Shown: one piece after another, positions 1 through 11,546 of the stretch
Layout of the letters: each line of letters starts with the position of its first letter
Position numbering within the stretch: the first letter of the stretch is position 1
Source: Samistivirus egole
Lineage: Duplodnaviria > Heunggongvirae > Uroviricota > Caudoviricetes
Strand: one strand, 5' to 3'
IMG/VR virus record: IMGVR_UViG_2974779775_000001
Coordinates: 124,108 to 135,653 of that record
Length of the DNA stretch: 11,546 bases
Notes under the pieces: model-generated
Database searches by the model: none
Seen by the model: the letters and a program-made list of their open reading frames with translations, nothing else
What the model was told of the DNA's origin: nothing
Position numbers and translations under genes: made by a program

Positions 1-111
1 AGGTATGACAACGTGTGCTTGAATCAATCAGTCTGTATGCATGATGAGTCTGTCTTGCATGTCCCCATTGAGCATGTGAAGTACACTCATCTTGTCAACC
101 AATGTTGCAAG

Positions 112-156
112 TTATCCACAGGTTTAGGCTAGGTTGTGGATAACTATTGTGGATAA
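112..156. promoter_or_regulatory. Cluster of three perfect DnaA boxes
   Basis: TTATCCACA at 112-120 (+). TGTGGATAA, its reverse complement, at 135-143 and 148-156. All are exact matches to the canonical 9-mer. Confidence 0.7.
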
Positions 157-412
157 AGAAATATAGGTTGTGCGCAATATAGTAGTGTGCTGATAGTGTG
201 TAATGGTGGGGTATGTTCCGGGCGGGAACAAAAGGCATCTACCCTGCATATTAAGGCTAGCAGACACATGGGCCCACGAATCCAAGGCAAGTAGGGCTGT
301 CAAGCACCGATAATTAGGCCCCAAAAGTGTCCCAAAGTGAGCAGAAACACGCTGATTTCAAGGGAAATGCTGCCATTTTGCCCGAAATCATGCCAAAAAT
401 CCCCAATTTTAA

Positions 413-882
413 CAGTCATTCGTAAAGCAGCCCCAATCTAGCCCACATGCAGCCCCGAATCAGCCCATCTTCCTGGAAAATTAGGCAGTCATCGTAAATG
501 GACCCACCATTCGAAGGCCAATGAGTCTGACAGACCTTAGATTCATAGATGAGGTGTCGATTCTCCCTATATACATGCCAGACTTGAGTCTGATGTGAGA
601 AAAGCCCGGCAATTTGAAGAAGCTTTCGTAAACGAACTAGATAGATACACACGCATTATAGGGAAGGGTAGGTAGTATATGTATATAGGGGACAAGGGTA
701 CTCATCACTACCGGCCTTGAATCTCAGCATGTCTTGTCTCTCATGTATATAGCAGAAAAGCCACCCCGAAGGGTGGCTATTTTTGTAAACTCAAATCCTT
801 GCGAAATTGTGGAATCTTCCGGGATTCTGAGGCCCATTCGTAAAGGGAATCTCTGGGAAATTTGAGGCCCCATCGTAAAGGG
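413..882 (+). repeat. Dispersed TCGTAAA direct repeats (5 copies) in non-coding DNA
   Basis: Core at 420-426, 492-498, 626-632, 838-844 and 873-879. Extended pairs: CAGTCAT(T)CGTAAA at 413-426 and 486-498; TGAGGCCCAT/CATCGTAAAGGG-type 20-mers at 828-847 and 863-882. Confidence 0.7.
755..785. terminator. Bidirectional intrinsic terminator
   Basis: Stem AGCCACCC (759-766) / GGGTGGCT (771-778), loop CGAA (UUCG on minus), A-run before and T-run after. Confidence 0.85.
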
Positions 883-969
883 GAAAAAGTCGGACATAGG
901 GGACAAATGACTGATGATGTTCATAGTCATGATGTTAGTTAGACTAGCTAAGGTGTCCGGGTCCGACAT

Positions 970-1058
970 TGAAAGGTCCCTGGGAGGCGGCCGACCTTCC
1001 GCTCATTACCCCTCGCCGAATGACTGATAGGGGTCCCAGGGACACACTTTGTACTACT
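970..1058 (-). ncRNA. Putative structured small RNA (three-way junction)
   Basis: Lies downstream of a consensus promoter with no plausible ORF. 9-bp closing stem 976-984/1035-1043, 6-bp stem 1008-1013/1029-1034, third stem 985-990/999-1003 with one bulge. Confidence 0.5.
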
Positions 1059-1063
1059 CTTCT

Positions 1064-1092
1064 ATGTTAGCAAGAGCGTGAGCCTATGTCAA
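1064..1092 (-). promoter_or_regulatory. Housekeeping-sigma promoter P1
   Basis: TTGACA (1092-1087), 17 bp, TAACAT (1069-1064), with extended TG. Confidence 0.85.
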
Positions 1093-1094
1093 CA

Positions 1095-1328
1095 TCACTT
1101 GGTGTAGTCAGGGAACAGGCGTTCCAACTCCCAGTCTTCCAAGAGATAGGCAGAGTGAGTGGGGGAGGGTACAGAGATACTGACAGCCCTGCCAAACTTC
1201 TTTGCCTGTTCGTTCCAGACCTTACCGATGAAAGAGTTGGGAGTGATTCCCTCCACCTTGAAGTAGAAGCTTCCCGAGAGAACCAGGTCACCCATGGACA
1301 GTTCGATGCTTTCCTTTACCGGCTTCAT
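1095..1328 (-). CDS. Hypothetical protein, 77 aa, probably leaderless
   Basis: ORF co-oriented with the array. ATG sits 7 nt after the TAGACT -10 element with no SD. Confidence 0.75.
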   Translation of the reverse strand: MKPVKESIELSMGDLVLSGSFYFKVEGITPNSFIGKVWNEQAKKFGRAVSISVPSPTHSAYLLEDWELERLFPDYTK

Positions 1329-1334
1329 GTGTTG

Positions 1335-1363
1335 AGTCTACCAGTACAAGAGGGCTCTGTCTA
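1335..1363 (-). promoter_or_regulatory. Promoter P2
   Basis: TAGACA, 17 bp, TAGACT (1340-1335), with extended TG. Confidence 0.8.
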
Positions 1364-1390
1364 CCCACCGGCCAATTTGTCGGACCCCGA

Positions 1391-1400
1391 CCCCGAAGGG
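1391..1400 (-). terminator. Short cassette-end C(UUCG)G hairpin
   Basis: CCC-CGAA-GGG on plus, 7 nt past the stop at 1408. The stem is only 3 bp. Confidence 0.4.
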
Positions 1401-1407
1401 CCGAGCA

Positions 1408-1707
1408 TCAGAAGTCGGGTTCGTCCATCAGGCTGCTGAACTCCTCTTCCATTTCAGCAATGGCCTCAGCCATCCAGAGGGCTCGTTCCTTCCTGCGAAT
1501 TTCACGACGGTGCCAGCGTCCGTTGTCCAGCTCATCCATGTAGCGGTGGGCAAGGATACGGCTGTTACCCATGACTCCACTGTTACGAGTCACGTGACCA
1601 CTCCACCTCTTACGGTGAAGCCCGGAACGGGGAATCGGGATACCCTTGGCACTGTTAGCGTACTCCGTGGCGCGAACCACACTGTACCAGTCACCGACAG
1701 AACGCAT
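1408..1707 (-). CDS. Hypothetical protein, 99 aa
   Basis: GGGAGG SD 6 nt upstream of ATG, own promoter, stop abutting the cassette hairpin. Confidence 0.8.
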   Translation of the reverse strand: MRSVGDWYSVVRATEYANSAKGIPIPRSGLHRKRWSGHVTRNSGVMGNSRILAHRYMDELDNGRWHRREIRRKERALWMAEAIAEMEEEFSSLMDEPDF

Positions 1708-1733
1708 ATACTTCCTCCCTTTTGCTTAGCTTG

Positions 1734-1762
1734 AGTCTACCAGAGTACAAGGACACTGTCTA
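1734..1762 (-). promoter_or_regulatory. Promoter P3
   Basis: TAGACA (1762-1757), 17 bp, TAGACT (1739-1734), with extended TG. Confidence 0.8.
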
Positions 1763-1795
1763 GCTACCGGGCGTTTGTCCGGCCCCGCCAAAAAT

Positions 1796-1820
1796 CCCCT
1801 AAACCCTTTCGGGCTAGGGG
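1796..1820 (-). terminator. Hairpin after the DUF932 gene (GAAA loop on minus)
   Basis: CCCCTA/TAGGGG outer stem plus CCC/GGG inner stem around TTTC on plus. Confidence 0.55.
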
Positions 1821-1839
1821 ACTGGCGAACATTCCTGGA

Positions 1840-2853
1840 TTAGCTGGCCAGGGCCAGGACCGCCTTACGGATGCGGTTCTTCTCGACGTTGACGACCGGG
1901 TCAAAGCCACTTGCGGCGATGAACAGGTTATCGACGTTGCCACCACGCGGCATCCGGTACCAGTCGATACGCTCCGTCAGAGCGTTCAGAGCACCCGCCA
2001 TCGTGCCAGACAGAGACTGCGTGGTCTTGGGACCGTCACCCGTGTCGGTGAAGATGCCCATGAGGATGTCACGCTTCGACTCCCACTTGACCATGCTGCC
2101 CTTGACATCCTTTTCGGGCTTGGGGTACAGGTCCTGAATCAGAGCATCGAACTTGTCCTTCGTGCACTGCACCTCGAACAGAGAGTTCATCTCACGCTCG
2201 AACTCATCCGCGTAGGCGAACGTGATGTTCAGAGCCTCACGCGCAGCAGCCATGCGACCCTCGATGGTCTGCGTGTGGCGCATCTTGAACTGTTGCTTCA
2301 CACCGTTACGGAGTGCAAAGTTCAGCGTGTTCTGACACACGACACGAACCGGGGTAATGCTTGCCTGAACTGCGACAGACCCGTCATGCGACGTGTTGAC
2401 CAGAAGATACAGCTTGGTCACGTCATCGTCACCGACCTTGATGTCACGCCCGATGCTCAGCGAACCGAACACCACACGACCATCCTTGATAGAACCGGCA
2501 GTCTCCCAGGTTCCACCACCCGCAAGGATGCCGTCACCGAAGCCGAACAGCTCTTCGTTCTGGACGACCTTGTACCGCTCGCCCACCGTGGCCAGAACGT
2601 CATTCCGGCCGGTGAAGGGGTTGGTACGGACGACCATGTGAGGCTCCGTCACGAAGTCATAGGTGTCGGACACCAGACCCATGATTTCCTTGATGGACTC
2701 CAGACGCACATCCCAGCCCGAAAGGTGGGCGAGAGACAGCATCTCCGAAGTGGTCAGCTCCCCCTCGAATACGGTTCCGAGGTTGTGCCACGCGGGCTCA
2801 CTGCGAGTGGCGAACGCGACCTGACCCTTGGAACCAATCTCAAGACCGTGCAT
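1840..2853 (-). CDS. DUF932 domain protein (phage/plasmid-like, TIGR03299 family), 337 aa
   Basis: Start MHGLEI with AGGAGG SD 6 nt upstream. Recognised motifs: PAWHxLG, Y.VVQNEE.F, WETAGS..xGR.VF, YLL..TSHDGS, TPVRVVCQNTL, HT. The ORF-track start at 3000 runs through the promoter and was trimmed. Confidence 0.9.
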   Translation of the reverse strand: MHGLEIGSKGQVAFATRSEPAWHNLGTVFEGELTTSEMLSLAHLSGWDVRLESIKEIMGLVSDTYDFVTEPHMVVRTNPFTGRNDVLATVGERYKVVQNEELFGFGDGILAGGGTWETAGSIKDGRVVFGSLSIGRDIKVGDDDVTKLYLLVNTSHDGSVAVQASITPVRVVCQNTLNFALRNGVKQQFKMRHTQTIEGRMAAAREALNITFAYADEFEREMNSLFEVQCTKDKFDALIQDLYPKPEKDVKGSMVKWESKRDILMGIFTDTGDGPKTTQSLSGTMAGALNALTERIDWYRMPRGGNVDNLFIAASGFDPVVNVEKNRIRKAVLALAS

Positions 2854-2911
2854 GTTGTGCCTCCTAGGCAGATTGGTGTTAGGGCCGGTTTCCCTGCCCT
2901 TCGATGTCTCT

Positions 2912-2941
2912 AGTCTAGCAGTAGGCAAGGGGTGATGTCTA
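2912..2941 (-). promoter_or_regulatory. Promoter P4
   Basis: TAGACA, 18 bp, TAGACT (2917-2912), with extended TG. Leader starts ATCGAAGGG at about 2905. Confidence 0.8.
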
Positions 2942-3006
2942 CCCATGCTGCCGGGCTCATGTCCACAATGTCCGATTTGCCCGTTGCCGGACCCGGACAC
3001 ACGAAG

Positions 3007-3024
3007 GCCCCTCCGAAGAGGGGC
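3007..3024 (-). terminator. Cassette-end C(UUCG)G hairpin
   Basis: 7-bp stem GCCCCTC/GAGGGGC, loop CGAA on plus, no U-tract. Confidence 0.6.
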
Positions 3025-3045
3025 TGTGTGCGAGCCTTAGCAGAC

Positions 3046-3486
3046 TCAGTACGCGGCGTCCAGGCAGGAACGCTCCCAGTTGGCCAGGTACATGCCGTCC
3101 AGCTTGGACACATAGGCGTCCACGATGTCCTTCGAGTCCTTGAGACCCAGACCGGTCTTCTCACGGAGCTGCTTGATGCACTGAATCTTCTTGTTGGAAC
3201 CGACCTCACGGACGATGTCCTTGACCAGCTCCGCACCCTGCGCCTTGACGCGCGCCTCGATGTCACGGAGACGGTTCAGCTCGTGGCTGGTGGGCTGCTC
3301 GGCGTCCTGCTTACCGGAACGGTAGCCAGCCTGGTAGCCCTCGGCGTAGGACTTGTCCTCACGGTTCTGGAGTTCCCCGGCGTAGATGGCCTCGAACATG
3401 TTGACCAGCTCCATGGCCTTGTTGAGGCTCATGTGACCCTCGAAGTTGTGGAGGGAGGCGAGGAGCTGAGCGCGAAGGTCCGACAT
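3046..3486 (-). CDS. Protein with C-terminal ribosomal L7/L12 CTD-like domain, 146 aa
   Basis: KKIQCIKQLREKTGLGLKDSKDIVD closely follows the L7/L12 CTD motif K(I/V)xxIKxxRxxTGLGLKEAKDLVE. GGAGA SD present. Confidence 0.8.
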   Translation of the reverse strand: MSDLRAQLLASLHNFEGHMSLNKAMELVNMFEAIYAGELQNREDKSYAEGYQAGYRSGKQDAEQPTSHELNRLRDIEARVKAQGAELVKDIVREVGSNKKIQCIKQLREKTGLGLKDSKDIVDAYVSKLDGMYLANWERSCLDAAY

Positions 3487-3531
3487 GATGTTCTCCGTTT
3501 CTAGGGGCTCCTTGCCCCTTTCGATGTCTCT

Positions 3532-3561
3532 ATCTTAGCAGTACCAAGGGCCCTGTGTCTA
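3532..3561 (-). promoter_or_regulatory. Promoter P5
   Basis: TAGACA, 18 bp, TAAGAT (3537-3532), with extended TG. Confidence 0.75.
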
Positions 3562-3586
3562 CCGGTCGTTTTTGTCCGGGCCCGAC

Positions 3587-3604
3587 AGGGCCCCGAAGGG
3601 CCCT
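3587..3604 (-). terminator. Cassette-end C(UUCG)G hairpin
   Basis: 7-bp stem AGGGCCC/GGGCCCT, loop CGAA on plus. Confidence 0.6.
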
Positions 3605-3608
3605 TCTG

Positions 3609-4049
3609 TCAGAACCTCACACCGACACCGGAACCGTCCAGCGATTCCACGATGCTCTTTGCGGTACGCAGGTCCAGCGTCGGGAAGTGGGCGCGAAGGT
3701 GCTTGATGCACGCAATCTTGCGCTCCAGGTTGTAGTAGCTGAATTCACTGTTCGCCCAGATGGACGCACGCGCGACCAACTTGGTGTGGTCGTTCTCAGC
3801 GGCATAGGTGGTCAGACGCTCCCCGTGCGCCTTACCCTGTCCGTAGCCGTCGTTGAAGGCGGACTCCACACGCCCGTTCGCCTCCTTACGGGCCAGGTCC
3901 CAGGCGTTGTTCTCCACCTCGTTGACCCGCTCCAGGTGGGCACCGTAGATGAGGTTGGCCACCGTGAACGCCTTCTTCAAGCTCATCTTGACACCGTTGG
4001 CGTTGAAGATACGCATGATGCGGGCCTCGTCCAGGGTGAAGATGCTCAT
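3609..4049 (-). CDS. Second, more diverged L7/L12 CTD-like domain protein, 146 aa
   Basis: RKIACIKHLRAHFPTLDLRTAKSIVE motif. GGAGG SD. Same length and layout as 3046-3486. Confidence 0.75.
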   Translation of the reverse strand: MSIFTLDEARIMRIFNANGVKMSLKKAFTVANLIYGAHLERVNEVENNAWDLARKEANGRVESAFNDGYGQGKAHGERLTTYAAENDHTKLVARASIWANSEFSYYNLERKIACIKHLRAHFPTLDLRTAKSIVESLDGSGVGVRF

Positions 4050-4094
4050 GGTAGCCTCCAGTCTCAGGGAGCTTGTCTCCCTTTCGATGTCTTT

Positions 4095-4123
4095 AGTCTA
4101 CAGGACTAGTGAGGCAGATACAA
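4095..4123 (-). promoter_or_regulatory. Promoter P6
   Basis: TTGTAT, 17 bp, TAGACT (4100-4095). Confidence 0.7.
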
Positions 4124-4151
4124 CCCCTCTTCAAAGTGTCCGGGCCCGACA

Positions 4152-4175
4152 CGGGCCCCGAAAGTCAAGGGCCCG
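4152..4175 (-). terminator. Cassette-end hairpin (10-nt loop variant)
   Basis: CGGGCCC/GGGCCCG stem, loop CGAAAGTCAA on plus, 6 nt past the stop at 4182. Confidence 0.55.
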
Positions 4176-4181
4176 GTAGGG

Positions 4182-4517
4182 TCAAGGGTTGGTGTGTCCC
4201 CTTTTCAGTAGTATCTGTTCGATGATGAATTTCGAATCCATCACGCGATTGAATTCATCATCTGAGCGGCTTTCCGTCCTGCCTGCCCATGCATTGAGAA
4301 TGGAGATGATGAACTGAAACATCACCGCCTGCACAGGCTCAGGATAGGTCGAAAGCAGATAGGCGAATGCATGAGGGTCGAATGACCGCTTATCCATTTC
4401 GTCAATCAGCTTATTGGCCAGACGCTCATACGACGTAGGCCGTGGCGTTACGAGTCGCGCACCCTCATACATGTCAGGTGCGATGATGCTTGTTCGTTTG
4501 AAGGGACTACGCGCCAC
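4182..4517 (-). CDS. Hypothetical protein, about 111 aa (start uncertain)
   Basis: 3' part of track ORF 4182..4859. GTG at 4517 overlaps the upstream stop and follows GGGGGAG. Alternative ATG at 4472. Confidence 0.65.
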   Translation of the reverse strand: MARSPFKRTSIIAPDMYEGARLVTPRPTSYERLANKLIDEMDKRSFDPHAFAYLLSTYPEPVQAVMFQFIISILNAWAGRTESRSDDEFNRVMDSKFIIEQILLKRGHTNP

Positions 4518-4671
4518 CCTCTCCCCCAAAGTCTTCCGTTGTACCGTATCCGTCTGAGACGCTGACAGACAGGCCCAGCACCTTTGCCATGAACTCTGCC
4601 GTAGCAGTAGCAAAGGGCCAGGCCGTGTCGTGAGCGTCATCATCGGGCGTGTCGATTTCGATGATGACCAT
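4507..4671 (-). CDS. Small acidic hypothetical protein, 54 aa (not in the ORF track)
   Basis: Hand translation MVIIEIDTPDDDAHDTAWPFATATAEFMAKVLGLSVSVSDGYGTTEDFGGEGGA*. AGGA upstream. Fills the gap between lsr2 and the next gene. Confidence 0.7.
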   Translation of the reverse strand: MVIIEIDTPDDDAHDTAWPFATATAEFMAKVLGLSVSVSDGYGTTEDFGGEGGA

Positions 4672-4680
4672 GACTCTATC

Positions 4681-5199
4681 CTATCGTGCGTGAACCTCGA
4701 CGTCCATACCGAGCACCACCGGGGAGCCACAGCCGCAGTGCGACAGGCTGTAACCGCACTTGCACACCTCACGCTCCGAGAGACGGATGCGCTTGCCACG
4801 GTAGTAAGCCGTGTACTCGGTACGGTTCGAACGGGTGGGCTCGGCGTGCGGACGGACATCCTTACCGGTCACCTTGACGTGCACACCGGGCGCAGCGGGC
4901 TTGACCTCCGGGTTGTCTGCCTTGTAAGCGGCCAGCACCTCAGCCGACAGACGACCACGGGACGACACGGTGAGACCCTTGGAAGCGGCCCACGCACGCA
5001 CCACCTTGGCATCGAACTGCCCGGCCTTGGGAGCGGCCTTGACGACCTTGCGAGGCGTGGCGTCGGTGTCAGCGAAGACCTTACCCGACTTCTCAGCCTC
5101 AGCGATGGCCTCGTATGCGGCAGCGCTCATCCGGCCACGGGATTCCTTGGCCAGGCCCAGAGAGACAGCGTACGCGCGACGGGTCATGTTGACGTTCAT
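4681..5199 (-). CDS. lsr2: Lsr2-type DNA-binding protein with a duplicated RGR module and Cys-rich tail, 172 aa
   Basis: FDAKVVRAWAASKGLTVSSRGRLSAEVLAAYKA matches the Lsr2 C-terminal DNA-binding domain. A second degenerate copy is at the N-terminus (RRAYAVSLGLAKESRGRMSA). The tail contains CKCGYSLSHCGC. Confidence 0.85.
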   Translation of the reverse strand: MNVNMTRRAYAVSLGLAKESRGRMSAAAYEAIAEAEKSGKVFADTDATPRKVVKAAPKAGQFDAKVVRAWAASKGLTVSSRGRLSAEVLAAYKADNPEVKPAAPGVHVKVTGKDVRPHAEPTRSNRTEYTAYYRGKRIRLSEREVCKCGYSLSHCGCGSPVVLGMDVEVHAR

Positions 5200-5226
5200 G
5201 GGGTTTCCTTCCCTCGGTGTGCACTC

Positions 5227-5255
5227 AGTCTATCGGATTGAAGGCGGAGAGGCAA
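5227..5255 (-). promoter_or_regulatory. Promoter P7a (proximal lsr2 promoter)
   Basis: TTGCCT, 17 bp, TAGACT (5232-5227). Confidence 0.7.
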
Positions 5256-5296
5256 GCCCCGGTGCAGAGGTTGGTTTCCCTCCCCTTCATGTCTCT

Positions 5297-5326
5297 AGTA
5301 TAGAGGACGTAACAGGGTCCTGTCTA
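5297..5326 (-). promoter_or_regulatory. Promoter P7b (distal lsr2 promoter)
   Basis: TAGACA, 18 bp, TATACT (5302-5297). Confidence 0.75.
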
Positions 5327-5367
5327 CAGTCCTAAATGTCCGATTTGCCCGAAGTCCGGGCCCGACA

Positions 5368-5383
5368 TGCCCCCGAAGGGGCA
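5368..5383 (-). terminator. Cassette-end C(UUCG)G hairpin
   Basis: 6-bp stem TGCCCC/GGGGCA, 5 nt past the stop at 5389. Confidence 0.6.
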
Positions 5384-5388
5384 AGGGG

Positions 5389-6123
5389 CTAAGCCTTTCG
5401 GCGCTTAGAGACCTTGGACGCGAAACGGATATCTGCCTTACCGAAGATGCAAAGGCCACACGTTACGCACGCGCCACCCTTTTCGGTAATGAGAGGAATG
5501 CGCTTGGCATTCTCAGGGCAGATAGCCCCAGGCTTACCAGTTTCGGTAAGCATGAATTCCTTACCCTGTTCGTGAGTCTCAGAGAGATAGGCAAGGCGGA
5601 CCGAAGGGAATTCCTTCTTTGTCGCCAGCGCCTTTTCCTCATTCTCACTGTCCACACTCAGATAAACAGAGAGGTTTTCGTGCCCTACGATGTGACGCAC
5701 GTACTGGAATGACCTAGTGTAAATCCAGAATTGCACATCCTGGAAAACCTCAGCCATTCGAGCGATATTCTGTGCGTATTCCGCAGAGAAGATATCGCCG
5801 TCAGCGTGCCAGCGAAACAGCTTAGGCGCGTCACGCTTTTCACAGTCAGCCCTGAAACTCTCAATCATTACTGCGAGATTGAGAAACTGGTCCTCGTTAG
5901 GGTCATTGAGAATGGCCCAGTTGTTGAGAACCAATTCACGATATGCAGGATACTGCCTTTCGAGCTTACCTGCATAGCATACGGTCTCACAGACCTTTGT
6001 CGCGCCGGGGCAGGAAAACGCCTTTCCACTCGGAATGGAGAATGCGTTTTTGATGACCGACTGTTCCCCTCGCTTGTTGGCAAGGTTGGCAGTCTTACGG
6101 TCATTCGTGCGCTTAAGCGGCAT
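5389..6123 (-). CDS. GP88-family Cys-rich phage protein, 244 aa
   Basis: Start MPLKRTNDRKTAN with GGAGG SD. Motifs CPGATxxCxxxCYA, FRWHADGD, FWIYTRS, NLSVYLSVD, CPEN and CVTCGLC are typical of the actinophage GP88 family as I recall it. Confidence 0.75.
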   Translation of the reverse strand: MPLKRTNDRKTANLANKRGEQSVIKNAFSIPSGKAFSCPGATKVCETVCYAGKLERQYPAYRELVLNNWAILNDPNEDQFLNLAVMIESFRADCEKRDAPKLFRWHADGDIFSAEYAQNIARMAEVFQDVQFWIYTRSFQYVRHIVGHENLSVYLSVDSENEEKALATKKEFPSVRLAYLSETHEQGKEFMLTETGKPGAICPENAKRIPLITEKGGACVTCGLCIFGKADIRFASKVSKRRKA

Positions 6124-6418
6124 TGCGTTCCTCCGAGCTGTAGGGCAATTCAGTGTTACGGACAATGGTACCGAGCGAAACAGCGTTGATTGTCTTGTGT
6201 CCAAGAATCCACGCCATTACGACACGGTGCTGACCATTGTAGACCGTGCCATTCTGAAAGTTGATAGGCATCTGAATTCCGTCACGCTCGCATGACTCAA
6301 TGAATTCATCGCTCATCTCAAAGAAAAGCTGAGTGAAAAGGTCCATCGTGGACTGACCTTCCTCGCGGTCTGCGAAGTCGGCACGGGCAACGATGGCTTC
6401 AACGCTCAGCTTCCTCAT
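6113..6418 (-). CDS. ParB/Srx-like domain protein (paralog 1), 101 aa, probably leaderless
   Basis: SC..DGIQMPI...NGQHRV..A..LG pattern resembles the ParB/Srx G.HR catalytic core. ATG at 6418 lies 8 nt after TATACT. The stop overlaps the GP88 start by 11 nt. Confidence 0.7.
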   Translation of the reverse strand: MRKLSVEAIVARADFADREEGQSTMDLFTQLFFEMSDEFIESCERDGIQMPINFQNGTVYNGQHRVVMAWILGHKTINAVSLGTIVRNTELPYSSEERNAA

Positions 6419-6425
6419 GTGTTCG

Positions 6426-6454
6426 AGTATAGCAAGACATGCGGACGTAAACAA
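6426..6454 (-). promoter_or_regulatory. Promoter P8
   Basis: TTGTTT, 17 bp, TATACT (6431-6426), with extended TG. Confidence 0.75.
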
Positions 6455-6505
6455 GCCCCTAGACGAATGTCTGAAATGTCCGTTGTCCGCCCCGGACATG
6501 ACTGA

Positions 6506-6523
6506 GGGCCCCCGAAGGGGCCC
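6506..6523 (-). terminator. Cassette-end C(UUCG)G hairpin
   Basis: 7-bp stem GGGCCCC/GGGGCCC. Confidence 0.6.
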
Positions 6524-6527
6524 GGTG

Positions 6528-6599
6528 TCAGAGAAAGATGATTGCGAGAAAGAACACAATCACCACGTACCAGAGAAAGGCGGTCAGACATTCTCGCAA
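6528..6599 (-). CDS. Putative transmembrane micropeptide, about 23 aa (start uncertain)
   Basis: (M/L)RECLTAFLWYVVIVFFLAIIFL*. TGA lies 4 nt from the cassette hairpin. TTG start at 6599, or GTG at 6647. Confidence 0.4.
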   Translation of the reverse strand: MRECLTAFLWYVVIVFFLAIIFL

Positions 6600-6661
6600 A
6601 CCTCCCGGTACCAAGAGTAGTGCGTGTACAGGTAGAAGTGAAGCCACTCAACGAAGTGCAT
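6584..6661 (-). CDS. Aromatic-rich micropeptide, 25 aa
   Basis: MHFVEWLHFYLYTHYSWYREVCENV*. AGGAG SD 5 nt upstream. ATG is 2 nt after the upstream TAA. Confidence 0.55.
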   Translation of the reverse strand: MHFVEWLHFYLYTHYSWYREVCENV

Positions 6662-6663
6662 GT

Positions 6664-6987
6664 TTACTCCTGACAGAGAGGCAGGCCCAAGTCGTCCTGC
6701 ATGTCCAGAAAGTCCGAGTTGAAGATTTCAAGGTACGTGCCACCCTTGATTTCTTCGATACCGAGCATGTATGCCACGATGAGCCTGTGACATCCCTCGT
6801 GAATCATGTTCTGCTCCTCATCATAGCAGATGGGAGAGACGATTCCAAGGGTCTGGCATGAGTCCATGAACTCATCCGACAGCTCAGACAGCTTGCGCAA
6901 GAGAAGTTGTTCACGAGTGAGACCAAGAGCCTCGGCGTCGTAGAACAGAGCGTTGTCGATGAGTGCCTTCACACTGTACATCTTCAT
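6664..6987 (-). CDS. ParB/Srx-like domain protein (paralog 2), 107 aa
   Basis: SDEFMDSC..LGIVSPI....HEGCHRL..A..LG. Aligns by eye with 6113-6418. Confidence 0.75.
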   Translation of the reverse strand: MKMYSVKALIDNALFYDAEALGLTREQLLLRKLSELSDEFMDSCQTLGIVSPICYDEEQNMIHEGCHRLIVAYMLGIEEIKGGTYLEIFNSDFLDMQDDLGLPLCQE

Positions 6988-7010
6988 TGCTTTCCCCTTT
7001 CGCTAGTACG

Positions 7011-7040
7011 AGTCTACTGCACTACCGGGCCCCATGTCAA
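7011..7040 (-). promoter_or_regulatory. Promoter P9
   Basis: TTGACA, 18 bp, TAGACT (7016-7011). Confidence 0.85.
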
Positions 7041-7071
7041 CACATCTGAAAAATGTCCGGGGCCGCCAAAA

Positions 7072-7089
7072 GGGGCCCCGAAGGGCCCC
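7072..7089 (-). terminator. Cassette-end C(UUCG)G hairpin
   Basis: 7-bp stem GGGGCCC/GGGCCCC. Confidence 0.6.
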
Positions 7090-7113
7090 CAAGGGGTCAA
7101 GCCGTTGTTGTGA

Positions 7114-7386
7114 TTAGTCCTCGCTGGTGTCCTTCTGGCTCACCAGCTTCGCACGACCGAGCAGAGAGGCGTCAGCCTCCTTCCACTTACGGACCGGGCG
7201 ACCGGTGCGCACGCGGGGGAAGCGGGCCAGGATGGCACGGGCGCGGGTCTCGTCGGCCTCCAGGATGTCGAACCGCTGGAAGGGAGCGACGTTGGACGTG
7301 GCACCGAACTCGATGTCCACCCCCTGGACAATCATGGCCACACGGAGGGCGAGAGCGTCACGGGCGGGAACGATACCGGCAATCAT
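7114..7386 (-). CDS. Hypothetical protein, 90 aa
   Basis: GGAG SD 5 nt upstream, GC3-rich codons, followed by the cassette hairpin. Confidence 0.8.
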   Translation of the reverse strand: MIAGIVPARDALALRVAMIVQGVDIEFGATSNVAPFQRFDILEADETRARAILARFPRVRTGRPVRKWKEADASLLGRAKLVSQKDTSED

Positions 7387-7499
7387 GTGAACTCCACTGC
7401 TAGAAGTAAGCTGGGGTATGAAGTTGTCAGAGACTTTGGCAGGAAGGGAAAAACCTCACGTTGCGAGGCCCTGTGGCCTGTCCCCTTGTGCTTAGCTAG

Positions 7500-7529
7500 A
7501 GTCTAGCAGGCTGACCTACTCGCAGTCAA
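7500..7529 (-). promoter_or_regulatory. Promoter P10 (-35 lies inside the upstream CDS)
   Basis: TTGACT, 18 bp, TAGACT (7505-7500), with extended TG. Confidence 0.8.
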
Positions 7530-7698
7530 CCAGGTACTCGGGCTCGTCGTCCTCGGAGACGGTCCAGATGTCCGCCAGCCATCCGCTACGGATGACGCCA
7601 GCCGACACGAACTTGTGCGGCTCAGCAGCCTCACGGACAGCGTCCGCGTGCTCCTCTTCGGAGATGATGCTGTAGCCCTCGGGAATCTCGAACGTCAT
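7516..7698 (-). CDS. Small acidic hypothetical protein, 60 aa
   Basis: AGGAG SD, own promoter and leader hairpin. Confidence 0.8.
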   Translation of the reverse strand: MTFEIPEGYSIISEEEHADAVREAAEPHKFVSAGVIRSGWLADIWTVSEDDEPEYLVDCE

Positions 7699-7743
7699 GA
7701 TTGCTCCTCTCTTGGGGAGGTTTCCCTCCCTTTCGATGTTCTA

Positions 7744-7772
7744 AGTCTACATGAGAGATGGGGCGGACGCAA
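7744..7772 (-). promoter_or_regulatory. Promoter P11
   Basis: TTGCGT, 17 bp, TAGACT (7749-7744). Confidence 0.75.
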
Positions 7773-7813
7773 CACCCAATATTCGTTAGGCTGCCTAAGT
7801 TGTCCGGGTCCGA

Positions 7814-7823
7814 CCCCGAAGGG
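7814..7823 (-). terminator. Short cassette-end C(UUCG)G hairpin
   Basis: CCC-CGAA-GGG on plus, 3-bp stem, 8 nt past the stop at 7832. Confidence 0.4.
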
Positions 7824-7831
7824 CCAGACTG

Positions 7832-7990
7832 TTAATCTCCCATGTCATCCAAGTGAGCATCGGGAGCGGGCTCGAACTCAAGGAAGGTGTCTTCGAAAAG
7901 CACCATCCATGCGTAGCCCTCACGGTTGTCAGGATTGCACTTACCACGGTGCATGTCACCCGTGGCAGCACCACACTCAATGCAGGTCAC
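7832..7990 (-). CDS. Small CCHC-type Zn-binding candidate, 52 aa (not in the ORF track)
   Basis: GTG start overlaps the upstream TGA (GTGA), GGAGG SD. Sequence MTCIECGAATGDMHRGKCNPDNREGYAWMVLFEDTFLEFEPAPDAHLDDMGD*. Confidence 0.75.
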   Translation of the reverse strand: MTCIECGAATGDMHRGKCNPDNREGYAWMVLFEDTFLEFEPAPDAHLDDMGD

Positions 7991-8205
7991 TCGGCCTCCT
8001 TGATGTCCATGGCAACCAGCATGTCAACCCTGCTGACAGTGAGGGCAATCTCTCGCCCGTCCTTGTCAGTGAAGTTGAAGGTACTTGCCTTGGCAGCGAC
8101 CGCCTTGCGCCACGACTCGTTCGTCTCCTCCGCACTGTGCGAAGTCAGAGTGAACAGAACCGGCTTGTCACGGTGGGCCAGGTGAACAGCAACGCGAGTA
8201 GCCAT
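7987..8205 (-). CDS. Hypothetical protein, 72 aa
   Basis: GAGGA SD, own promoter and leader hairpin. Confidence 0.8.
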   Translation of the reverse strand: MATRVAVHLAHRDKPVLFTLTSHSAEETNESWRKAVAAKASTFNFTDKDGREIALTVSRVDMLVAMDIKEAE

Positions 8206-8250
8206 GATGCATCCTCTCTTCCGGGAGTTTTTCTCCCTTTCGATGCTCTA

Positions 8251-8279
8251 ACTCTACACCATCAGACAGACAGAATCAA
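8251..8279 (-). promoter_or_regulatory. Promoter P12
   Basis: TTGATT, 17 bp, TAGAGT (8256-8251). Leader ATCGAAAGGG starts at 8244. Confidence 0.75.
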
Positions 8280-8297
8280 GACTGTCGGGCCCCGACA

Positions 8298-8315
8298 CGG
8301 GCCCCGAAGGGCCCG
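8298..8315 (-). terminator. Cassette-end C(UUCG)G hairpin
   Basis: 7-bp stem CGGGCCC/GGGCCCG. Confidence 0.6.
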
Positions 8316-8326
8316 GCGGGAAGGTG

Positions 8327-8611
8327 TTACTTCTTGGCCTTGGCGCGCTTGTTGCTGTGGTTGCCGTTCATGAGGGCCGTGAAGTCCAGCATGATGTTCT
8401 GCTTGAAGTTGGTCGCTCCGTGGAACTTGCCGTCCTGGTCACGGATGACGATGCGGACCTCGGTGGAGTCGCTGCCCGGAGTGGTCTTCCAGGTCTCCAG
8501 ACGGATGCTGTAGGTGCTCTTGGAGCCCTTGACCTTGAAGCCCTCGGAGATGGTGACGCTGGAGACGATGTTGTGGTTGACGTCGGTCGCCTTGCGAAGG
8601 GTAACAGCCAC
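8327..8611 (-). CDS. Hypothetical basic protein, 94 aa
   Basis: GTG start with AGGAG SD, GC3-rich codons. Confidence 0.8.
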   Translation of the reverse strand: MAVTLRKATDVNHNIVSSVTISEGFKVKGSKSTYSIRLETWKTTPGSDSTEVRIVIRDQDGKFHGATNFKQNIMLDFTALMNGNHSNKRAKAKK

Positions 8612-8663
8612 GGTGACTCCTAAGTCTCTGCTAGGGGTTTCTTTCCCCCTTGCTGATAGCTAA

Positions 8664-8692
8664 AGTCTACACGACTCAGCCGACAAGTACAA
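8664..8692 (-). promoter_or_regulatory. Promoter P13
   Basis: TTGTAC, 17 bp, TAGACT (8669-8664). Confidence 0.75.
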
Positions 8693-8731
8693 CCCATGAA
8701 ATTATGTCCGAAATGTCTGTCGGAGCCGGAC

Positions 8732-8749
8732 AGGGGCCCGAAGGCCCCT
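8732..8749 (-). terminator. Cassette-end C(UUCG)G hairpin
   Basis: 7-bp stem AGGGGCC/GGCCCCT, 4 nt past the stop at 8754. Confidence 0.6.
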
Positions 8750-8753
8750 CCCG

Positions 8754-9080
8754 TCAGTCTGCCAGGATGGCGGCCAGACGCTCACGCTGCGCACGGTCAT
8801 GCGCACCGGAACGGCTCGCGTACTCCTGGAACTCGGAGACGGTTTCGACGGAGAAGTGTCCGTTTTCGTCCAGCTTGGCCACACGAACGGTGTAGCGTCG
8901 GGCGTAGTCGTCGTTCCGCTCCGAAGAGACGAAGAACATGGACTGTCCGTCGATGGTGCTGTAGCACATGTCCGAAATGCGCGACTTCCACCACCGCATG
9001 GTAGAAGCGGAGAAGAAGTGGTTGCCCTGGTCCTTGGCGATGGCCTTGGCGTCCTCGATGCTGAACAGAACCTTACGCAT
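8754..9080 (-). CDS. Phage hypothetical protein, 108 aa
   Basis: Start MRKVLFS with GAGGA SD. The HFF...TMRWW.SRI...FFVSSE...RRYTVR pattern recalls a widespread uncharacterised phage family. Track start at 9224 trimmed. Confidence 0.8.
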   Translation of the reverse strand: MRKVLFSIEDAKAIAKDQGNHFFSASTMRWWKSRISDMCYSTIDGQSMFFVSSERNDDYARRYTVRVAKLDENGHFSVETVSEFQEYASRSGAHDRAQRERLAAILAD

Positions 9081-9109
9081 TTGGGGTTCCTCTCCCTCGG
9101 TGTAAGACG

Positions 9110-9138
9110 AGTCTATCAGAGACAAGGGACATGCACAA
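9110..9138 (-). promoter_or_regulatory. Promoter P14
   Basis: TTGTGC, 17 bp, TAGACT (9115-9110). Confidence 0.75.
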
Positions 9139-9176
9139 CACCTACCGGGCCTTTTTGAAAATGTCCGACCCCGACA

Positions 9177-9190
9177 GGGCCCGAAGGCCC
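9177..9190 (-). terminator. Cassette-end C(UUCG)G hairpin
   Basis: 5-bp stem GGGCC/GGCCC, extendable by GACAG/CTGTC. Confidence 0.55.
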
Positions 9191-9195
9191 CTCTG

Positions 9196-9510
9196 TCAGG
9201 ATTCGATGGACTTCTGACGCTCACGCGGGAGCGCAGCCACCTCCGTGATGATTTCGGTCAGACGCTCCTCATCGACCCACCCCTCAACGGAGTCATCCAA
9301 CACGCCATTGTCGTCAGGCATGTTGCCCTCGGGGTCGAAGATTCCGCATTCGACTCCGTAGGTTCCGTACGCCTTGACGACCGACAGACGCCATCCGTTC
9401 TCGTAGTTGACGTAGAAGTGGATGCCCGTTCCGTTCTCACCGTGACGCGGACCGAAAGTGACCTTTGCACCCGGAGCAACGTCACGCGCGATGTTGGCAA
9501 GCTCACTCAT
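9196..9510 (-). CDS. Phage hypothetical protein, 104 aa
   Basis: Start MSELANI after purine-rich GAAGGGAAAG. Contains NGWRLSVV..YG...E and DDSVEGW..EE motifs. Track start at 9570 trimmed. Confidence 0.8.
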   Translation of the reverse strand: MSELANIARDVAPGAKVTFGPRHGENGTGIHFYVNYENGWRLSVVKAYGTYGVECGIFDPEGNMPDDNGVLDDSVEGWVDEERLTEIITEVAALPRERQKSIES

Positions 9511-9541
9511 GGTCTTTCCCTTCGTCGTTTTCGTTAGCACT

Positions 9542-9570
9542 AGTCTAGCAGTCGGATTTTTGAGTCGCAA
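9542..9570 (-). promoter_or_regulatory. Promoter P15
   Basis: TTGCGA, 17 bp, TAGACT (9547-9542), with extended TG. Confidence 0.75.
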
Positions 9571-9631
9571 CCCCTCAGACCGATTTTTTAGTCTGTGGGC
9601 AAAATGTCTGTTTTTTTAGTCGGGGGCGGAC

Positions 9632-9643
9632 GCCCCGAAGGGC
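9632..9643 (-). terminator. Cassette-end C(UUCG)G hairpin
   Basis: 4-bp stem GCCC/GGGC. Confidence 0.45.
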
Positions 9644-9651
9644 TAGCCGCC

Positions 9652-9963
9652 TTACTCCCAGGGCCGGTAGTCAGACCAGTCGGAACCCTCGTGATTCTGA
9701 ATTTCGACGGTCACCGTGTCACCCAAACGGTGATTCACGCTGTACAGGGAACGGCTGGAGCCCTGGTAACGCCTCTGGGCCTTTGCCCACTTGACCAGCT
9801 TCTCAGCCTGCTTACGGGAACGGCAGGGCCATGCCTCGATGCACTCTCCGTAGTTGTACCACCATCCGCCCTCTTCCGAGCCACCACAGGCCCGGTCCAC
9901 CAGATGAATGTTCACCCAGTGCTTGTTCCGACGACGCTGACCCATACGCAGACCCTTGGCCAT
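9652..9963 (-). CDS. Phage hypothetical protein (GGxEEGGWWY motif), 103 aa
   Basis: AAGGAGG SD. VNIHLVDRACGGSEEGGWWY and a terminal RPWE recall an uncharacterised phage family. Confidence 0.85.
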   Translation of the reverse strand: MAKGLRMGQRRRNKHWVNIHLVDRACGGSEEGGWWYNYGECIEAWPCRSRKQAEKLVKWAKAQRRYQGSSRSLYSVNHRLGDTVTVEIQNHEGSDWSDYRPWE

Positions 9964-9987
9964 TTCCGCCTCCTTGTTGATGACCTA

Positions 9988-10016
9988 AGTCTAACAGAAG
10001 CCTAGGACAGATTCAA
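9988..10016 (-). promoter_or_regulatory. Promoter P16
   Basis: TTGAAT, 17 bp, TAGACT (9993-9988), with extended TG. Confidence 0.75.
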
Positions 10017-10071
10017 TATGCTTGCCAGGATGTACAGTGATTGTCGGACCCGGACAAAAAAATTCGCCTAC

Positions 10072-10132
10072 AAATTCACCCCTCTTTTCTAAGGGAATCT
10101 GGGAAGAAATCCTTGAAAAGAGGGGTGAATTT
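10072..10132. repeat. 18-bp perfect inverted repeat (long hairpin)
   Basis: AAATTCACCCCTCTTTTC (10072-10089) / GAAAAGAGGGGTGAATTT (10115-10132), with inner AAGG/CCTT pairing. Confidence 0.85.
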
Positions 10133-10318
10133 TTTCTGCGAATGTTTTTCGAAGGTCAGATTGCGACTTTTTCGTCTTTTCCTGCCTCACAAAGGCAGTA
10201 TTTCGAATGTGTCGCCTCGATTGCGACAAAGCCGCTTTCCTGATACCTCGAAAGAAGGTTGGCCAGAAGGGACGAGTTGAAAACCGGTGTTTTGGATTTC
10301 AGCCCGTCCCTTTCCAGC

Positions 10319-10376
10319 AAAAGGGACATACTGTGGAATCGAACCTGAGAAACAGCCTTTTTCCGCATTATGCCCC
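10319..10376 (-). terminator. Stem plus UUUU element after the 48-aa gene
   Basis: On minus, GGGGCAUA (10376-10369) pairs with UAUGUCCC (10330-10323), followed by UUUU. Confidence 0.5.
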
Positions 10377-10386
10377 CCCCTACTGC

Positions 10387-10533
10387 CTAGGCCAGTTCGG
10401 ACATGTGCGGGTAGGCGTCCCAGTCGAAGCCGTCCACACGGTCACCATCCTGCACATCGGACACAGGCACCGTGATGGTGGTGAAGACACCAGCGTCGCT
10501 GGCCTGCTCAAGAAGGGTACGGAGGTCAGTCAT
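10387..10533 (-). CDS. Small acidic hypothetical protein, 48 aa (not in the ORF track)
   Basis: MTDLRTLLEQASDAGVFTTITVPVSDVQDGDRVDGFDWDAYPHMSELA*. AAGGA SD and own promoter. Confidence 0.75.
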   Translation of the reverse strand: MTDLRTLLEQASDAGVFTTITVPVSDVQDGDRVDGFDWDAYPHMSELA

Positions 10534-10564
10534 GTTCTTCCTTCTTCCTCTTGGTGATAGCTCT

Positions 10565-10593
10565 AGTCTAGTCTACGTACATGGGGGATGCAA
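10565..10593 (-). promoter_or_regulatory. Promoter P17
   Basis: TTGCAT, 17 bp, TAGACT (10570-10565). A second overlapping TAGACT is at 10575-10570. Confidence 0.75.
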
Positions 10594-10653
10594 GCCCTAG
10601 ATGTTCCGGGAATTTTCAGCGCCTATCGTACACGCGCGGGGGAAATGTGGGGT

Positions 10654-10781
10654 ATGTACTTAATGTACCTTAATAGGGCCTATGTACCATATGTCCGATA
10701 TGTACCATGCGTACCTGTATGTACCCATATAGCAGGATATATCCCCTATCCTCCCTATGTACCGAATGTCCGATATGCCCG
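10654..10781 (+). repeat. Degenerate tandem repeat ATGT(A/C)C with about 9-bp period
   Basis: ATGTAC at 10654, 10663, 10682, 10700, 10719 and 10757. ATGTCC at 10691 and 10766. GCGTAC at 10709. Confidence 0.75.
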
Positions 10782-10896
10782 TTTGTCGGGGACGGACTGT
10801 TACACATCCGTTATCTAAGAAACCCTGTTTTGGTGGTTTGGCGGGCCCTGACTAGGGCATGATGTAGGCATAGCCACTACGGACCAGGGAGACACA

Positions 10897-11358
10897 GTGA
10901 ACGCCACCACCGCCACCCACACCAACACCCACACTGACGGCCGGACCTGCACCTACAGCACGGAAAAGGCCACAAACGCCCGTGTGCGTAGGCAGGTGCT
11001 CGCTACGGTCCTGTACCTGGCTAGCCTTACGGGAGACAGTGACGGGGCCACATGGGCTAACTGTGTGGGGTGTGGGGAGCGTGCCCACGTGGGTGGTACG
11101 CCTAGGGCCATGGACACGTTCAACCTTGGCCACGTGCACAGTGATGCTGAGGGTGGCATGTGGTGCGTGTGCAACTTCCTTCCCCTGTGCAGGCAGTGCA
11201 ACGTAGACATGGGCAAGGAACACATGATGGACCTTCTCACCCCGATGTATGACAATCGGGACATGTGGGACGGTAAGCTCCTCAAGGACACCGGGGCTGA
11301 GGTTGCACCCATGGACAACCGAGGACGTGCCCGCTGGAACGCCCCCACGGGCCGCTAA
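10897..11358 (+). CDS. HNH endonuclease (Zn-binding), 153 aa
   Basis: CVGC ... LGHVHS..EGG...VCNFLPLCRQCN gives the CxxC-H-N-CxxCN HNH signature. GTG start with AGGGAGA SD. Confidence 0.85.
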   Translation: MNATTATHTNTHTDGRTCTYSTEKATNARVRRQVLATVLYLASLTGDSDGATWANCVGCGERAHVGGTPRAMDTFNLGHVHSDAEGGMWCVCNFLPLCRQCNVDMGKEHMMDLLTPMYDNRDMWDGKLLKDTGAEVAPMDNRGRARWNAPTGR

Positions 11359-11372
11359 GCGGCTTTGAGAGT

Positions 11373-11406
11373 AGCCCCTAGGACGTAGTGGCCTAGGGGC
11401 TCTTTC
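11373..11406 (+). terminator. Terminator after the HNH gene
   Basis: 10-bp stem AGCCCCTAGG/CCTAGGGGCT followed by CTTTC. Confidence 0.7.
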
Positions 11407-11546
11407 ATGCCCTCAGACGGGCCCTCAGCCCTTTTGAAAACGGCTTTCAACTAGGGTGGAACCTTCCCCGGAACCTTCCCGCAAGAGAATGTCAAGGGAT
11501 ATGGGCGCACTATCTGGATTGTTACAAAGGTATGCGAAGCATGTAT

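Follow-up and report, generated by a model that had tools for sequence, protein, structure and literature searches.

A predicted three-way junction RNA behind a conserved promoter in the terminal repeats of cluster BE Streptomyces phages

The gene-free end of the repeat and its features

The window analysed here (the whole stretch of 11,546 nucleotides) comes from a virus record of 135,653 bp whose ends are direct terminal repeats. Window positions 206-11546 equal bases 1-11341 of the same record, and the covariance model of the element described below finds exactly two copies in this genome (763-841 and 125075-125153), one per 11,341-bp repeat; the window thus comprises the right terminal repeat and 205 bases to its left. 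Positions 1-205 are unique DNA adjoining the left side of the right repeat, which begins at window position 206. In cluster BE, approximately 84 records of Streptomyces phages (Samistivirus and Karimacvirus, ~131-135 kb) match the window, always at two places per record. The genes of the repeat lie on the minus strand of the window, the first of them being gene 1 (1328-1095, minus strand), which varies from phage to phage and ends with a TGA, with the -35 element of a promoter directly downstream. Plus-strand genes lie to the left of the right repeat and converge on a terminator at 759-778, which divides the leftward genes of the repeat from the rightward genes of the unique region. Two L7/L12-like proteins are encoded in the repeat, and this type of phage also encodes Ro60, RNA ligase, polynucleotide kinase, tmRNA and ~35-40 tRNAs.

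The element lies ~770-840 bp inside the outer end of the repeat, in a gene-free stretch with many repeated DNA motifs, and no other part of the repeat's last kilobase is as well conserved. Almost none of the GenBank records inspected annotates it, and the Jay2Jay record has a hypothetical CDS on the opposite strand that overlaps it. AT-rich repeated units, CTATATACAT in this repeat and TATATAAGACAT in Karimac-type phages, some of them palindromic, also occupy the gene-free end of the repeat (window 500-750 and the equivalent region of L005, L016 and L019-L022); they could be protein sites or phage-specific promoters. The features of the element and its surroundings are as follows.

1064-1092, minus strand: sigma-70 (HrdB)-type promoter, with TTGACA at 1092-1087, a 17-nt spacer, TG at 1072-1071 and TAACAT at 1069-1064
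1044-1058, minus strand: predicted 5' leader, ending in an invariant UGU; start site taken from the position of the -10 element
976-1043, minus strand: three-way junction of P1, P2 with the P2a hairpin, and P3, supported by covariation; 91.7 bits with the covariance model R1
1043-1034 with 985-976, minus strand: P1, 10 bp
1033-1029 with 1013-1009, minus strand: P2, with an AUCA internal loop between P2 and P2a
1024-1022 with 1017-1015, minus strand: P2a, a hairpin
1002-999 with 990-987, minus strand: P3, with the loop AAGGUCGG
968-975, minus strand: pyrimidine-rich 3' tail CUUUCAAU, invariant at 7 of 8 positions in 17 distinct BE copies
955-967, minus strand: cassette dyad GTCGG-N3-CGGAC, hairpin kept, with one G-G mismatch in this copy
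759-778, both strands: bidirectional intrinsic terminator with an 8-bp stem, a UUCG loop and a T-run on each side, from a scan of both strands

The promoter, which the initial annotation had described as near-consensus (TTGACA-17-TGnTAACAT), indeed matches the consensus at 10 of 12 positions in addition to the TG, ranks among the three best of the window in a consensus scan, and is unlike the TAGACA/TAGACT promoters of the other cassettes of the repeat. The pattern TTGnnn, a 17-nt spacer (18 nt in one copy), TG and TAnnnT is found at the same place in 30 of 30 copies while the sequence of the spacer drifts, as would be expected of a working extended -10 promoter. Transcription would start near 1056-1058, as deduced from the -10 position. 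The junction begins 20 nt downstream of the promoter, the leader varies between 15 and 24 nt among BE phages through indels, and the junction module occupies the very 5' end of the predicted transcript in every copy. It is highly probable that the RNA is transcribed from this promoter. Four runs, wastewater libraries labelled RNA-Seq among them, gave contigs that cover relatives of the region, in which start, end and strand are unreadable.

On the 3' side, the only change in the tail is an A-to-G in phage Elmer, and the sister-subfamily copies are also flanked by a related CU-rich segment. The dyad, which had been placed directly after the junction, is present there; among the phages, its hairpin shows changes in the arms and CCC/GGG swaps in the loop, and it is possibly a 3' end or a protein site. 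The stem of the terminator covaries between Samisti-type and Karimac-type phages. This terminator would be the latest possible 3' end, yielding a transcript of ~300 nt, and an end at the dyad would possibly yield one of ~100 nt. Short conserved blocks are present 3' of the dyad, namely CTAACTAAC (942-934), ATGTCCGA (897-890), which resembles a half-site of the dyad, and TTTACGA (879-873 and 844-838). An alternative pairing between the 3' arm of the dyad and the 5' strand of P1, as in a switching structure, can by inspection form in Samisti-type copies and not in Karimac-type copies.

The statement that no ribosome-binding site (RBS) or open reading frame (ORF) follows the promoter holds as well. 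No ORF 3' of the junction is conserved in more than 80 BE genomes. The two frames that overlap the element, a 33-aa GTG frame (1045-944) and an 81-aa ATG frame (969-724), are mechanical ORFs that are not conserved, the downstream one being cut or shifted in relatives. A peptide-like frame, MS[E/D]F.PFT, runs through the downstream blocks. It has neither an RBS nor a conserved start. Jay2Jay has a stop after the third codon, the frame is shifted in Sushi23, Samisti12 and Daubenski, and one in three of the phages has a broken version; we read it as non-coding. The element itself ranges from 79 to 83 nt among copies through loop indels of 1-4 nt, which rules out a reading frame through it.

Fold, distribution and genomic contexts of the junction

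The fold energy of this copy does not exceed chance expectation (z = -1.09 for 121 nt, -1.87 for 72 nt), so that the single sequence alone proves nothing. The case for the structure comes from comparison. The BE loci fetched (22) reduce to 17 distinct versions, for which RNAalifold yields 23 pairs, 9 of these with compensatory changes. The innermost pair of P1 (A1034-U985) occurs as five pair types (GC, UA, CG, AU and UG); one position of P2 occurs as CG, GC or UA and one pair of P2a alternates between AU and CG; in P3, one position is CG or AU and another GC, AU or UA. For our own structure, the covariation score of the BE copies is 0.255, compared with 0.096 for column shuffles and at most 0.111 for slid partners. 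When metagenome and sister-subfamily copies are included in a model-fitted alignment of 29 distinct sequences, the score rises to 0.45 (shuffles, 0.146; slid partners, 0.086 at most), 98.6% of the cells pair, and both sides change in 15 of the 23 pairs (104 cells). Since all copies belong to one phage family, common descent accounts for many of these changes, which are thus not independent.

The compact junction of about 68 nt proposed in the initial annotation is thereby upheld as a fold (976-1043), with one correction: A1034 pairs with U985, as its five pair types indicate, and not with U1008. With this pair formed, P1, P2 and P3 meet without spare nucleotides except for one junction strand, which is UAAU plus a bulged A in this copy and UUAAW in most copies. 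Inspection of the BE alignment and the metagenome copies suggests a further pair, G1004-C986, that varies between GC, GU, AU and UA around the invariant bulged A. One U-G pair is invariant in P2a, and U-G pairs also occur in P1 of Karimac-type copies; on the other strand these would be A-C, which identifies the strand read from the promoter as the functional one. The unpaired nucleotides CCU-AUCAGUC...GGCRAGG, UAA and GUCGGC are invariant across both subfamilies. Taken as a whole, the comparison makes it almost certain that the element is a structured RNA with a real fold, as had been proposed.

A 171-nt query around the element matches 81 cluster BE phage records at two places each, with one match in each terminal repeat, ~720-900 bp inside the genome end, and the part common to all 81 is window 968-1050, that is, the junction. 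Pattern scans and the model R1 recover the BE phages and three further viral contigs, and the element is present in 11 metagenome contigs by pattern scan and model; in all, the fold is kept in ~90 related phage genomes and contigs. One extra pattern match (L216) falls within an ORF and is due to chance. In 151 Streptomyces genomes, R1 yields no match at E 0.01 or better, and in two other Streptomyces genomes it gives only noise; none of 22 bacterial contigs with a pattern match carries a real copy, the best scoring 14.3 bits (E 0.36). Coruscant, a member of a third genus in the same subfamily as the BE phages, has no element in its first 14 kb with the filters off. By these comparisons the element is established as restricted to phages, as far as sequence searches can tell, and literature searches found nothing on this RNA.

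Beyond cluster BE, R1 matches Beuffert and Annadreamy (subfamily Loccivirinae, cluster BK) with 49-51 bits, and further matches are Blueeyedbeauty and several metagenome relatives, the latter with 44-49 bits; a barely scoring copy is found at the same genome position in Muntaha. These sister-subfamily copies add new compensatory changes in P1, P2 and P3 and keep the unpaired nucleotides. The element is single-copy there, at ~105-110 kb, and its context is different. In the Annadreamy/Beuffert-type phages, Muntaha and the metagenome relatives, the order is fixed: the promoter, a ~40-nt leader, the junction, 25-45 nt, a good RBS and the gene of a conserved acidic protein of 34-41 aa that begins MP.V(Y/F)DYDDE (example loci are L122:1625-1741, L124:654-779 and L215:16189-16293). 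The acidic peptide has no homolog in the BE genome studied here (best match E 0.09) and matches no PHROG family. The C-terminus of gene 1 (LLEDWELERLFPDY, window 1095-1140) weakly resembles the middle of this peptide (E 0.31, 19 aa), probably by chance. In a distant variant (L211:1501-1565, 25 bits), the P2 hairpin and the junction strand persist, P1 is short and P3 ends in a plain tetraloop; this variant directly abuts the stop codon of a gene and has no promoter at the usual distance.

The promoter and the junction are all that the BE phages and the sister subfamily have in common here, local alignment scores of the downstream DNA being equal to those of shuffled sequences. The junction would thus occur in two contexts, as a stand-alone RNA in BE phages and as an mRNA leader in the sister subfamily. 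StarPlatinum (L018:787-930), the only BE copy seen with a gene in the slot between junction and dyad, has there a 40-aa ORF that contains a CxxC motif and is preceded by a good RBS. This insertion, together with the sister contexts, points to the junction as a separable 5' module and to a transcript that does not end directly behind it. The description of the RNA as the payload of a cassette is therefore apt for its stand-alone form in BE phages, and falls short for the acidic-gene leader of the sister subfamily and for StarPlatinum, with its small gene before the dyad.

Known RNA families and candidate partners

The Rfam search and the covariation check in related phages that had been proposed for this element gave no family match on the one hand and compensatory changes in the majority of the pairs on the other. 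Rfam 15 has no match at gathering score in the window, and at E up to 10 nothing in window 700-1110 overlaps the paired core 976-1043; a SNORD35 match at 909-968, which touches only the last base of the tail, is due to chance. That the element is not a tRNA is borne out by ARAGORN, which reports none in the window, and by the Rfam tRNA model, which matches 35 loci elsewhere in the genome and not the junction. On these searches, the junction appears to belong to an RNA family not yet described. It resembles orphan motifs of the Rfam type in its covarying helices, invariant loops and narrow taxonomic range, and differs from them in having its own conserved promoter and two contexts. An antitoxin-like RNA, one of the roles initially considered, finds no counterpart here: in contrast to ToxI-like antitoxins, the element is single-copy in each repeat, contains no ~36-nt tandem repeats and has no adjacent toxin gene.

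Among phage RNAs, the pRNA of phi29 is built on a three-way junction and its gene lies at the genome end, behind a strong, host-type early promoter and read toward that end. The BE element is likewise a junction RNA near the genome end behind a promoter; this likeness applies to the BE phages only, the sister copies lying at ~105-110 kb as leaders of an mRNA. Furthermore, by inspection, the invariant loops of the junction (AUCA, the P2a loop and AWGGUCGG) offer no complementary pair for the formation of a ring, the junction has no Rfam match (which covers the pRNA family if it is in release 15), and the phages with the element have ordinary small and large terminase genes. The put RNA of HK022 is a promoter-proximal, ~70-nt structured cis antiterminator of early transcripts, without its own ORF and made of two stem-loops. 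The element is similarly promoter-proximal, ~70 nt long, structured and in no need of its own ORF; unlike put, it is a junction rather than two stem-loops, and the BE phages have no co-oriented downstream genes. Because the genes beyond the terminator face the opposite way, there is nothing for an antiterminated transcript to reach. With riboswitches, the element shares an aptamer-like core of covarying helices around an invariant junction and loops; it differs in that the consensus fold of six sister leaders, a small sample, consists of the junction only, with no alternative pairing of the RBS and no terminator, and in that the BE copies have no downstream gene.

The two L7/L12-like proteins of the repeat were the reason to consider a mimic of the ribosomal stalk base (the L10/L11 site or an L10 leader). 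The topology of the junction is presumably the same as in the 23S GTPase-associated centre (H42-H44). A search with R1 (filters off) of a Streptomyces 23S piece containing the H43 loop gave only wrong-strand noise. The L7/L12-like proteins do not follow the element either, Coruscant having an L12-domain gene and no element and Beuffert and Annadreamy the element and no L12-domain gene. The TROVE/Ro60 protein encoded in this genome shows the same mismatch: Coruscant has Ro60 and lacks the element, and Annadreamy has the element and lacks Ro60.

Y RNAs have a long stem closed by their 5' and 3' ends (PMC4201824), and the terminal stem of the junction is also closed by both ends, in a phage that carries Ro60 (PMC4201824, PMC12135203). 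The junction differs from YrlA and Yrl1/2 in having no tRNA-like domain and no CGAA/GNCGAA motif (PMC4201824, PMC12135203). The YrlA model RF02553 matches genome positions 77571-77685 (32.9 bits, below the curated 69) as well as tRNAs, and does not match the junction. This candidate locus (L108:1501-1615, outside the window) has clear tRNA-like T and D arms; a tRNA gene immediately precedes it, and the Ro60 gene follows ~5.8 kb downstream. In the relative Riptide, the corresponding region has no such annotation. The locus is probably the Y RNA of the phage.

Proposed function and alternatives

In BE phages, the helices of the junction stay paired through compensatory changes without a following gene, which suggests that the RNA does something by itself; it probably acts independently of a downstream gene in these phages. 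Invariant loops held on covarying helices are the signature of a binding surface, and for this reason we favor, with somewhat better than even confidence, a free RNA, made early, that would have a host or phage factor as its binding partner and act as a self-contained module. Under this model, the host RNA polymerase would make the RNA from its dedicated near-consensus extended -10 promoter, and in BE phages the product would be a stand-alone non-coding RNA with one copy of its gene per terminal repeat, starting near 1057. The three helices would fix a set of unpaired elements, namely the AUCA loop with the GUC/GGC stem, the UAA strand, the GUCGG loop and the CU-rich tail, that together would form a specific surface for the partner. 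The likeliest partner would be a host or phage protein that is bound, sequestered or recruited; the chances that it is a protein, rather than another RNA or a small molecule, seem to us evenly balanced. Transcription, abundance, early timing, the 3' end and protein binding are what we infer from the sequence comparison.

The sister-subfamily context keeps alive, as the main rival, a cis-acting 5' leader in which the junction would control its own transcript, be it stability against 5'-end-dependent RNases, translation or elongation, with or without a bound factor. In BE phages such a leader would act on the non-coding RNA 3' of the junction. In the sister subfamily, the junction is always followed by an RBS and then by the same acidic gene, StarPlatinum has a small ORF with an RBS directly after the junction, and the module always opens the transcript; all this would fit such a role. 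What makes us consider it doubtful is that the helices covary in the BE genomes that have no conserved ORF behind them, that the consensus fold of the six sister leaders shows neither of the switching elements sought, that the genes beyond the terminator provide no read-through target, and that a simple hairpin would be enough for 5' protection and would leave the invariant loops unexplained. A reading that would accommodate both contexts, and that we regard as rather unlikely, is that the junction is a sensing or decoy aptamer, which BE phages would deploy as a free RNA made very early and the sister subfamily as the leader of the acidic protein mRNA; its target would be a host small molecule or else a host protein involved in defence or RNA handling. 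Improbable to a greater degree is a base-pairing small RNA for which the junction would be a scaffold and whose CU-rich tail would pair with purine-rich sites, either Shine-Dalgarno regions or the AUCGAAAGGG leaders of the early cassettes. The near-invariance of the tail in BE phages and the CU-rich stretch that flanks the element in every lineage are consistent with this possibility, as is the occurrence of AUCGAAAGGG 4-5 times on the transcribed strand, compared with 0.65 expected, its GAAAGG core being complementary to the tail. However, the pairing with these leaders amounts to just 6 contiguous bp and 2 more, with mismatches, matches to the full tail complement number 7 against 7.7 expected, and no conserved single-stranded segment has repeated strong targets in the phage genome; moreover, a seed-only model leaves the invariant loops and the junction unexplained.

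The remaining explanations carry very little weight. An RNA partner of the phage Ro60, akin to Y RNAs, draws on the presence of the TROVE/Ro60 gene in this genome and on the long, end-closed stem (PMC4201824), and is very improbable given that the YrlA model matches another locus, that the CGAA/GNCGAA motif is absent and that Ro60 and the element occur apart. Least credible of all is the absence of any RNA feature, that is, a DNA-level site (an operator, an origin or a packaging element) or a small coding gene; the gene-free, motif-rich repeat end and the two overlapping mechanical ORFs could be read in this way, against which stand the compensatory changes, the U-G pairs that are valid on the transcribed strand only, the loop indels that break the frames and the fixed position of the promoter.

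Large Streptomyces phages of this family are widely isolated, and the early regions in their terminal repeats are almost wholly unannotated. An RNA that is backed by covariation, has its own promoter and occurs in two contexts offers a small, testable entry into the takeover of Streptomyces. Were the junction an aptamer, it would represent a new class of phage RNA decoy or riboswitch in Streptomyces and, if a ligand is sensed, a new riboswitch class. If the partner is a host factor, this RNA would be one of very few such phage RNAs known in actinobacteria.
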